DNA of 64,000 nt, from sequence record PP925840.1; one strand, written 5' to 3'. Shown here piece by piece: positions 58,132 through 58,785 of the stretch. The notes beneath the pieces were generated by a model that did not search any database, was not told where the DNA came from, and saw only the letters and a list, made by a program, of their open reading frames with translations. Each line of letters opens with the position of its first letter. The first letter of the stretch is position 1. Origin of the DNA: Escherichia phage SholemSchwarzbard. The position numbers and the translations under genes are program-made.

Positions 58132-58334
58132 GTAACCTTTAAGCAATATTCTTCTACATGTTGTTTACGACCTTTCTTATCAATAAAGGTATATTCAACG
58201 AATGTTCCAATGTAGTCTTTATCTACATCATGTGGACTATTAATTGGACATTTAGTACGGCAAATGCGTTCCCATTGACGAATAATTACTGCTTTGTTTT
58301 TAGGATCAAACGGATGTGGGTAATGCACTTTCAT
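58122..58334 (-). CDS. small hypothetical protein, 70 aa
   Basis: ORF track. Confidence 0.6.
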   Translation of the reverse strand: MKVHYPHPFDPKNKAVIIRQWERICRTKCPINSPHDVDKDYIGTFVEYTFIDKKGRKQHVEEYCLKVTWL

Positions 58335-58785
58335 AATCCACCACTATTAAATCAATATCAGGAGTAAACATGTCGATTAATTTAGAAACCTTATCCCAAT
58401 CGCCGCCAGCAATACCACAACCTATGCGTGGAATGTAAATTACCGGTTTAAACAAAAGGGTTTCTGCCTGTAGATTTAATTCTATCATGCAGTTTACTAA
58501 AGCACCATAATCAAGATTAGGACCTGGTTCGTATTGCGTATACAAGTTATAACATATGCCAAAACCATTAGGTTTATGTTTAAAAACAATAGACATATCG
58601 CCTAATTTATCACGAGAACCGTACTCAGTAGTGGTTTTATCTATTTCTAAAATTTTGGGATAGGCTCTTGCTAATTGACCCGCTACACCTGAACCCATAG
58701 TATGAAAACAATTGCACCCGTGCGCAATAATATTACCTTGAAGAAATAGGGCGACAATATCGCCCTTGATATATTTTACAATCAT
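58306..58785 (-). CDS. macro-domain protein (putative ADP-ribose binding / ADP-ribosyl hydrolase), 159 aa
   Basis: IKGDIV...GNIIAHGCNCFHTMGSGVAGQLARAYP and RIGCGIAGG resemble the two nucleotide-binding loops of macro domains. Confidence 0.6.
   Translation of the reverse strand: MIVKYIKGDIVALFLQGNIIAHGCNCFHTMGSGVAGQLARAYPKILEIDKTTTEYGSRDKLGDMSIVFKHKPNGFGICYNLYTQYEPGPNLDYGALVNCMIELNLQAETLLFKPVIYIPRIGCGIAGGDWDKVSKLIDMFTPDIDLIVVDYESALPTSV

Follow-up and report, generated by a model that had tools for sequence, protein, structure and literature searches.

A Gln-type macrodomain in the tk.4 slot of a Tequatrovirus, a divergent allele of the T4 anti-DarT factor gene adfM

The 64,000-nucleotide window of Escherichia phage SholemSchwarzbard DNA analyzed here (sequence record PP925840.1) encodes a protein that is quite probably a stand-alone TARG1/ALC1-like macrodomain ADP-ribosyl-glycohydrolase, an allele of T4 tk.4/adfM, most likely acting to remove DarT2 tags from phage DNA. 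DarTG2 blocks phage replication by placing ADP-ribose tags on DNA thymidines, and a stand-alone eraser in T4-like phages helps explain DarTG2 resistance, which bears on the choice of therapeutic phages and on the layering of defences and counter-defences. The finding holds but is not new: the gene is already annotated, and its T4 ortholog has been described as a counter-defence gene acting against DarTG2 (bioRxiv 10.1101/2025.11.20.689424). New here is the Gln-type active site of the T4-type AdfM family; the further increments are the separation of this family from the AdfM of phage PhiKZ and from DarG, and an allelic dimorphism. The name AdfM currently spans two lineages, and the gene has alleles that are deeply diverged and that pass between genomes nearly identical elsewhere.

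The macrodomain ORF lies on the minus strand at 58306..58785 and begins with an ATG codon. The earlier note, which gave no strand, had correctly placed a 159-residue ORF there, and both loop strings that it quoted, GNIIAHGCNCFHTMGSGVAGQLARAYP and RIGCGIAGG, were found in the translation. The window comes from a Tequatrovirus, and a 2.7-kb stretch containing the ORF shares 99% identity with several Tequatrovirus genomes, among them those of vB_EcoM-G157lw, GiZh and Shigella phage A2. In the annotated records and in T4 (NC_000866) the minus strand order is regB, vs.1, vs, tk.4, tk.3, more small genes and tk, and therefore the macrodomain ORF occupies the tk.4 slot, between vs and tk.3. The block is flanked by tk (56973..57554) and by the endoribonuclease gene regB (59669..60130, minus strand; Pfam REGB_T4, 231 bits), which opens the co-oriented run, in keeping with the tk-regB context first proposed. 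Immediately upstream is vs, the valyl-tRNA synthetase modifier gene (58782..59123, minus strand; PHROG 1256, E 5e-40, and T4 annotation), the stop codon of which overlaps the macrodomain start codon (ATGA). Next comes vs.1 (59116..59661, minus strand; T4 annotation), the product of which has an SLT domain (Pfam SLT, 25.1 bits; cut-off 21.3) and a signal-like N-terminus. At the other end, the last 29 nt of the macrodomain ORF (58306..58334, minus strand) overlap the start of tk.3, because 13 nt are deleted compared with T4. The C-terminal tail encoded there, ESALPTSV, is of low confidence, the last pLDDT block of the alignment-based AlphaFold2 model averaging 64.

The transglycosylase-like protein that the earlier note saw in this run is the vs.1 product, the SLT match of which exceeds the cut-off. 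The secreted Cys-rich protein is the product of the named gene vs, and the label uncharacterised was wrong for it. That label was also wrong for the macrodomain gene, which carries the public labels 'macro domain protein', 'phosphatase' and 'Poa1p-like': RefSeq describes T4 tk.4 as 'phosphatase; contains A1pp phosphatase motif', and other records read 'macro domain containing protein' or 'Poa1p-like family protein'.

That the 159-residue protein is a macrodomain is far beyond chance. It matched Pfam PF01661 (Macro) with 33.1 bits over profile positions 2-117 of 118 (gathering cut-off 22; E 6e-8, or 6.1e-8 unrounded). A phmmer search of the PDB sequences returned BT1257 (1.4e-10), Poa1p (1.2e-9) and SCO6735 (1e-7), with weaker matches to the Mycobacterium tuberculosis (Mtb) DarG macrodomain (2.4e-5) and to TARG1 (9e-3). 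When a 55-sequence family profile was used against the PDB, the E values ranged from 1.7e-19 (BT1257) to 1e-9, with TARG1 at 3.6e-17. AlphaFold2 modeling with an alignment gave a pLDDT of 93.6 and a pTM of 0.88; only this model was used, as the single-sequence model (pLDDT 35) was discarded. The model has the predicted three-layer alpha/beta/alpha macro fold, and Foldseek gave TM scores of up to 0.82, the highest being for TARG1, the top structural matches being BT1257, Mtb DarG, Poa1p and TARG1. Hence, the macro-domain call, which the earlier note had staked on finding a profile or structural match, survives with strong matches of both kinds. The nearest relatives in both sequence and structure are members of the TARG1/ALC1-like class (TARG1, DarG, SCO6735/BT1257, Poa1p and ALC1), and the protein belongs to this class.

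The window protein is 57% identical to T4 Tk.4 over the full length (E 1e-69) and is encoded in the same slot. In the HIDEN-SEQ preprint, tk.4 was the single significant transposon-sequencing hit for T4 on a DarTG2 host, and a clean tk.4 knockout rendered T4 sensitive to DarTG2; its authors called the gene adfM (anti-DarT factor Macrodomain), and removal of ADP-ribose from DNA was proposed from the likeness of its predicted structure to Mtb DarG (bioRxiv 10.1101/2025.11.20.689424). A further factor had been predicted from the finding that T4 lacking both adfA and adfN was still resistant to DarTG2 (PMC11825919). The evidence for T4 tk.4 is thus genetic plus structural similarity, and the anti-DarTG2 phenotype is that of the T4 allele only (bioRxiv 10.1101/2025.11.20.689424). 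Of the functions offered in the earlier note, removal of DarT-type DNA ADP-ribosylation is therefore the one backed by published genetics of the T4 ortholog (bioRxiv 10.1101/2025.11.20.689424).

The database labels suggest another function, that of a housekeeping ADP-ribose-1''-phosphate phosphatase or O-acetyl-ADP-ribose deacetylase. Weak phosphatase or deacetylase activity in vitro is common to many macrodomains. However, the phosphatase reading rests on likeness to Poa1p, in which F152 is replaced by Ala in the window protein and the central region fails to align. Moreover, within the region examined nothing of the Tpt1/KptA type was identified that could supply ADP-ribose-1''-phosphate, and the specific DarTG2 phenotype of the T4 ortholog would be left unexplained (bioRxiv 10.1101/2025.11.20.689424). 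We consider a housekeeping role of this kind quite improbable.

In the removal of DarT2 tags that we favor, the proposed sequence of events is conveniently divided into three steps: (i) host DarT2 would attach ADP-ribose to thymidines in single-stranded phage DNA, (ii) the macrodomain enzyme would bind the ADP-ribose moiety in the cleft that lies between loop 1 (H22-A35) and loop 2 (P119-W130), and (iii) the enzyme would then hydrolyze the ribose-thymine bond to restore replicable DNA. By analogy with SCO6735, Gln84 would position the distal ribose and a water molecule would be activated; the Lys-dependent route of DarG, TARG1 and PhiKZ AdfM is not expected for a Gln84 enzyme. We infer both the hydrolysis of thymidine-linked ADP-ribose by the window protein and the role of Gln84.

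Sixteen residues are invariant in the 55-sequence family (G8, H22, G23, N25, C26, G33, A35, D49, G62, N80, Y82, Q84, P119, G122, G124 and W130), and all 16 are common to the window and T4 alleles. Six of these (H22, G23, N25, C26, G33 and A35) lie in the first glycine-rich loop, residues 22-35 (HGCNCFHTMGSGVA; 58681..58722, minus strand), the predicted ADP-ribose-binding loop. Another four (P119, G122, G124 and W130) lie in the second, residues 119-130 (PRIGCGIAGGDW; 58396..58431, minus strand), which is the predicted phosphate-binding loop. Glycines 31, 33, 122 and 124 are invariant across the class alignment, consistent with the predicted binding of ADP-ribose in the cleft. H22 aligns with H23 of Poa1p and H24 of SCO6735, G23 with V25 of SCO6735 and N25 with N23 of PhiKZ AdfM, the SCO6735 numbering being fixed by V25 in AHVCND and Q85 in NMIGQ.

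The predicted key catalytic residue is Gln84, the CAA codon of which is at 58534..58536 (minus strand). In the alignment of the family profile to the PDB sequences, Q84 falls on Lys84 of TARG1 (LITKK versus LYTQY) and on the Gln of BT1257 (NMIGQ), and A126 falls on the positions of TARG1 Asp125 and Poa1p Phe152. A joint alignment gave the same division: the catalytic column was Gln in the window protein, T4 Tk.4, the other phage homologs, BT1257 and SCO6735, whereas it was Lys in TARG1, both DarG macrodomains and PhiKZ AdfM. The catalytic lysine of Thermus aquaticus (Taq) DarG is Lys80 in the numbering of the paper that describes it (PMC9411070). Thus, the window protein falls in the Gln-type subgroup, with Q84 equivalent to Q85 of SCO6735, A126 at the position of TARG1 D125, and neither the Lys nor the Asp. 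SCO6735 also lacks the Lys/Asp pair and yet efficiently removes thymidine-linked ADP-ribose from DNA and rescues DarT toxicity, the Q85A protein being inactive (PMC9411070). Given the Gln in the catalytic column and the activity of SCO6735 without the Lys/Asp pair, the T4-type enzyme is predicted to use SCO6735-like Gln chemistry and not the Lys chemistry of DarG.

Several properties count against the explanation that we judge best. The window allele and the T4 allele that has the phenotype share only 57% identity. The window protein is acidic (pI 5.25), with no counterpart of the longer mobile loop and its DNA-binding lysines found in SCO6735. Cleavage by TARG1-class enzymes extends to uracil-linked and Glu/Asp-linked ADP-ribose, and the physiological substrate range could be broader.

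A broad-spectrum eraser having its main targets beyond DarT2, such as uracil-linked ADP-ribose on RNA or the products of other ADP-ribosylating toxins, would be compatible with the removal of uracil-linked ADP-ribose from RNA by TARG1, DarG and the Gln-type SCO6735 (PMC13036486), with the cleavage of Glu/Asp-linked protein ADP-ribose by SCO6735 and TARG1 (PMC9411070), and with the very wide distribution of the family among phages. Activity of the window protein on uracil-linked ADP-ribose in RNA in vitro is plausible by analogy with these relatives. However, possession of tk.4 does not spare T4 from strong restriction by the mRNA ADP-ribosyltransferase CmdT (PMC11618068), 2'-OH-linked RNA ADP-ribose is removed by PARG enzymes and not by SCO6735, and our literature search found no bacterial defence that ADP-ribosylates uracil. 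Hence, main targets beyond DarT2 seem very improbable to us. Reversal of CmdT mRNA marks was considered separately and judged unlikely owing to the strong sensitivity of tk.4-bearing T4 to CmdTAC (PMC11618068).

Comparison of the alleles gave a region of divergence. From about 60 nt inside the ORF through to its end, sliding DNA identity to T4 drops, and the segment at 58320..58730 (minus strand) is an allelic replacement cassette with 37-88% identity, the flanking vs and tk.3 sequences being mostly 97-100% identical. The dS between the window and T4 alleles was 1.38, which is saturated, and this value therefore points to old alleles that are exchanged by recombination instead of diverging in place. 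Within the window-type allele class dN/dS was 0.07-0.16, and therefore the gene is maintained by purifying selection within that class. In our phage collection the window-type allele was present at 90% identity or greater in 312 records, and the T4-type allele in 224 records at 90% or greater and a further 159 at 80-90%; homologs of the protein were found in about 2,770 phage records from many genera. A tentative proposal, which we regard as rather improbable, is that T4-like phages keep at least two ancient recombining Gln-type AdfM classes, which possibly differ in the DarT2 variants neutralised, in the other thymine- or uracil-directed ADP-ribosylating toxins countered, or in evasion of host factors. 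If the allele classes differed in this manner, the locus would be a specificity cassette in an arms race, and the Gln chemistry would have been recruited independently, as a second answer to DarT2 that differs from that of the DarG-derived, Lys-type PhiKZ AdfM.

Two deeply diverged alleles within flanks of mostly 97-100% identity also fit co-evolution with a protein partner, as would be expected if the protein protected mainly by mimicking an antitoxin, binding DarT2 and blocking it, or by this and hydrolysis together. Catalytically dead SCO6735 (Q85A), DarG (K80A) and TARG1 (K84A) all inhibit DarT in vitro, SCO6735 being the strongest (PMC9411070), and because dead SCO6735 binds and inhibits DarT, protection need not be purely enzymatic. 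Against DarT2 binding as the main route, the window protein has no DarG C-terminal DarT-binding domain, its match to the DarG model covering positions 2-138 of 338 only, and the 16 invariant residues include both glycine-rich loops and the catalytic column, indicating selection on catalysis. PhiKZ AdfM, moreover, works enzymatically (PMC13309987). We therefore think DarT2 binding unlikely to be the main source of protection and retain enzymatic removal of the tags as the preferred explanation.

The same window carries ModA/ModB-like genes, as the earlier note had said: ORFs at 11780..12382 and 12379..13014 both match the PHROG 'RNA polymerase ADP-ribosylase'. This makes a writer-eraser pairing attractive, in which the macrodomain protein would erase or edit the ADP-ribosylation or RNAylation marks made by the phage's own Alt, ModA and ModB. 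However, T4 Alt, ModA and ModB make arginine-linked ADP-ribose, which is cleaved by enzymes of the ARH family; macrodomains are not known to cleave this linkage. The relatives of the window protein act on thymine- or uracil-linked base ADP-ribose and on Glu/Asp esters, and reversal of the Mod marks is therefore unlikely on linkage chemistry. The spread of homologs over so many phage genera may argue in the same direction, as does HIDEN-SEQ, which in the preprint text available flagged tk.4 only under DarTG2 (bioRxiv 10.1101/2025.11.20.689424). We regard self-mark editing as extremely improbable, and this suggestion of the earlier note, like that of immune-signal degradation by the protein, found no support.

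The regB-vs.1-vs-tk.4-tk.3 genes are tightly packed and co-oriented with overlapping stop and start codons, and the macrodomain gene is probably transcribed together with the others of this run, all of which we take to be early genes in T4. A sigma-70-like sequence upstream of regB (60158..60186, minus strand; TTTACT-17-TATAAT with TG) is a candidate early promoter for regB-vs.1-vs-tk.4, the assignment resting on the consensus match only. In the consensus scan such sites were not enriched, with eight found versus a mean of 12.5 in shuffled sequences. A potential terminator or attenuator hairpin at 58748..58766, in the conserved 5' end of the ORF, was rejected (z = -1.29), as 22 of 200 shuffled sequences folded as well.

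The macrodomain may not be the only protection against DarT in the window. An ORF at 17834..18457 (minus strand) encodes an ortholog of T4 gp61.2 (tblastn, 95% identity over 208 residues), which we take to be AdfA. AdfA is an anti-DarT factor (PMC11825919). Hence, as judged by homology, the window would carry a second anti-DarT gene and thus a layered defence of the AdfA ortholog plus the macrodomain.

Among known systems, the closest likeness is to T4 Tk.4/AdfM, which is encoded in the slot between vs and tk.3 and is 155 residues in length versus 159 in the window. The C-terminus of the window protein is four residues longer, and the overlap with tk.3 is 29 nt versus 4 nt in T4. In loop 2 it is T4 Tk.4 that is the outlier, with GAGIGKGNW, whereas the window protein has the family consensus GCGIAGGDW.

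Yeast Poa1p and human TARG1/OARD1 differ from the window protein at key positions. Of the Poa1p mutant positions, taken from PDB entry titles, H23 corresponds to H22, S30 is conservatively replaced by T29, and F152 is the residue replaced by Ala126. The catalytic pair of TARG1/OARD1, K84/D125, is Q84/A126 in the window protein.

SCO6735 of Streptomyces coelicolor and BT1257 of Bacteroides (PDB 5E3B and 2FG1/2AFC) are Gln-type TARG1-like proteins having about 26-29% identity to the window protein and are found in the context of a bacterial DNA-damage regulon, whereas the window protein belongs to a phage. Their extended mobile loop with DNA-binding lysines and their electropositive surface are not shared: the mobile loop of the window protein is six residues shorter than that of BT1257 and five shorter than that of SCO6735 (YEPGPN versus HGIYKDSKGLPP), and lacks lysine. 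The pI of 5.25 compares with 9.5 for SCO6735 and 8.4 for BT1257. PhiKZ AdfM is also acidic (pI 5.05) and is still active on DNA.

DarG profiles were the best or only matches of the window protein in the NCBIfam and PADLOC libraries (E 1.6e-6 and 4.5e-7). The NCBIfam DarG equivalog NF048014 scored 27.6 bits versus a cut-off of 250 over model positions 2-138 of 338, and the PADLOC DarG model was matched over positions 3-144 of 329. The DarG proteins of Mtb and T. aquaticus (PDB 5M3I and 5M31) have the catalytic Lys80 and a C-terminal DarT-binding domain, and the 159-residue window protein has neither, with Gln at the catalytic position. An identity as DarG was therefore rejected on the sub-threshold score, the missing C-terminal domain, the replacement of Lys by Gln and the lack of an apparent darT in the stretch examined, where the neighboring genes vs, vs.1, regB and tk.1-tk.3 gave no match to a Pfam ADP-ribosyltransferase family. 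As regards an origin from DarTG operons, the one bacterial homolog inspected, from Pelagimonas, is a single example and is stand-alone with no darT neighbor.

Finally, PhiKZ gp104, from a chimallivirus, shares with the T4-type protein the name AdfM, the inferred role against DarT2 and the asparagine that is N23 in gp104 and N25 here. In vitro, gp104 strips DarT2-attached ADP-ribose from a TNTC oligonucleotide, an activity that is reduced by the N23A substitution, and the protein is imported into the phage nucleus (PMC13309987). Gp104 carries the DarG-type Lys in FPTKDNW, and its matches in the PDB were to DarG structures only (9e-25, 3e-19 and 9e-18). By BLASTP its similarity to the window protein is bare (E 0.001 over 33 residues), although profile comparison confirmed remote homology with 96% probability. 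Thus, the T4-type and PhiKZ-type AdfM proteins are different lineages, two branches of the class that share one name.

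The macrodomain gene of the window, an allele of T4 tk.4 (adfM), lies in a sharp-edged island of divergence (58320..58730) relative to the T4 stretch L002, with flanks that are mostly 97-100% identical. The window and T4 macrodomain proteins share 57% amino-acid identity, and dS is 1.38. The crossover points differ among phages, as the macrodomain of phage 236Ecol005PP is T4-like at residues 15-19 and then switches to window-type sequence. In the second glycine-rich, phosphate-binding loop, the protein encoded by T4's own allele (tk.4, L002 4923..5390) deviates at nearly invariant family positions (C123A, A126G, and G127K), and therefore the experimentally tested protein is the less canonical allele.

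Compared with T4, the 3' end of the gene (58306..58334) lacks 13 nt, a deletion that has taken out the T4 stop codon, and hence the macrodomain ORF runs 29 nt into tk.3 in a different frame, the read-through contributing a disordered C-terminal tail. The first 60 nt of the ORF, a fully conserved stretch, contain a GC-rich hairpin of 8 bp followed by a T-rich run (58748..58766, minus strand). One public record, OL631480.1, has "terminator" among the features listed under its tk.4 match. The folding energy of the hairpin was no better than that of shuffled sequences (z = -1.29).

The tk to tk.3 interval (57564..58146) gave no alignment to T4 and has a distinct set of small genes, one gene more than T4, which includes a DUF7438 ORF (57564..57749) and a 75-residue Phage_zn_bind (PF23895) ORF (57919..58146). 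[quoted passage not shown] The Vs protein contains several cysteines and has a signal-peptide-like N-terminus (MTKILVLCIGLISFSALA), which makes its localization a puzzle given that its target is cytoplasmic. The HIDEN-SEQ preprint (bioRxiv 10.1101/2025.11.20.689424) reports that, among T4 genes, vs shows the strongest depletion in minimal medium.

The window also encodes an ortholog (17834..18457, minus strand; 95% identity) of T4 gp61.2, known as AdfA. AdfA is an anti-DarTG1 factor (PMC11825919). Thus, the phage carries at least two anti-DarT genes within the window.

A bacterial homolog of the macrodomain protein (~40% identity) is encoded on the Pelagimonas phthalicica chromosome (6001..6459 of the stretch L003) by a stand-alone gene. 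Its neighbors are a tryptophan halogenase-like gene and a 175-residue ORF with no Pfam match that adjoins a peptidase M23 gene, and no darT was found nearby in L003. Given this setting, the one bacterial homolog inspected hints at an origin of the phage family in orphan macrodomains of bacteria and not in DarTG operons.
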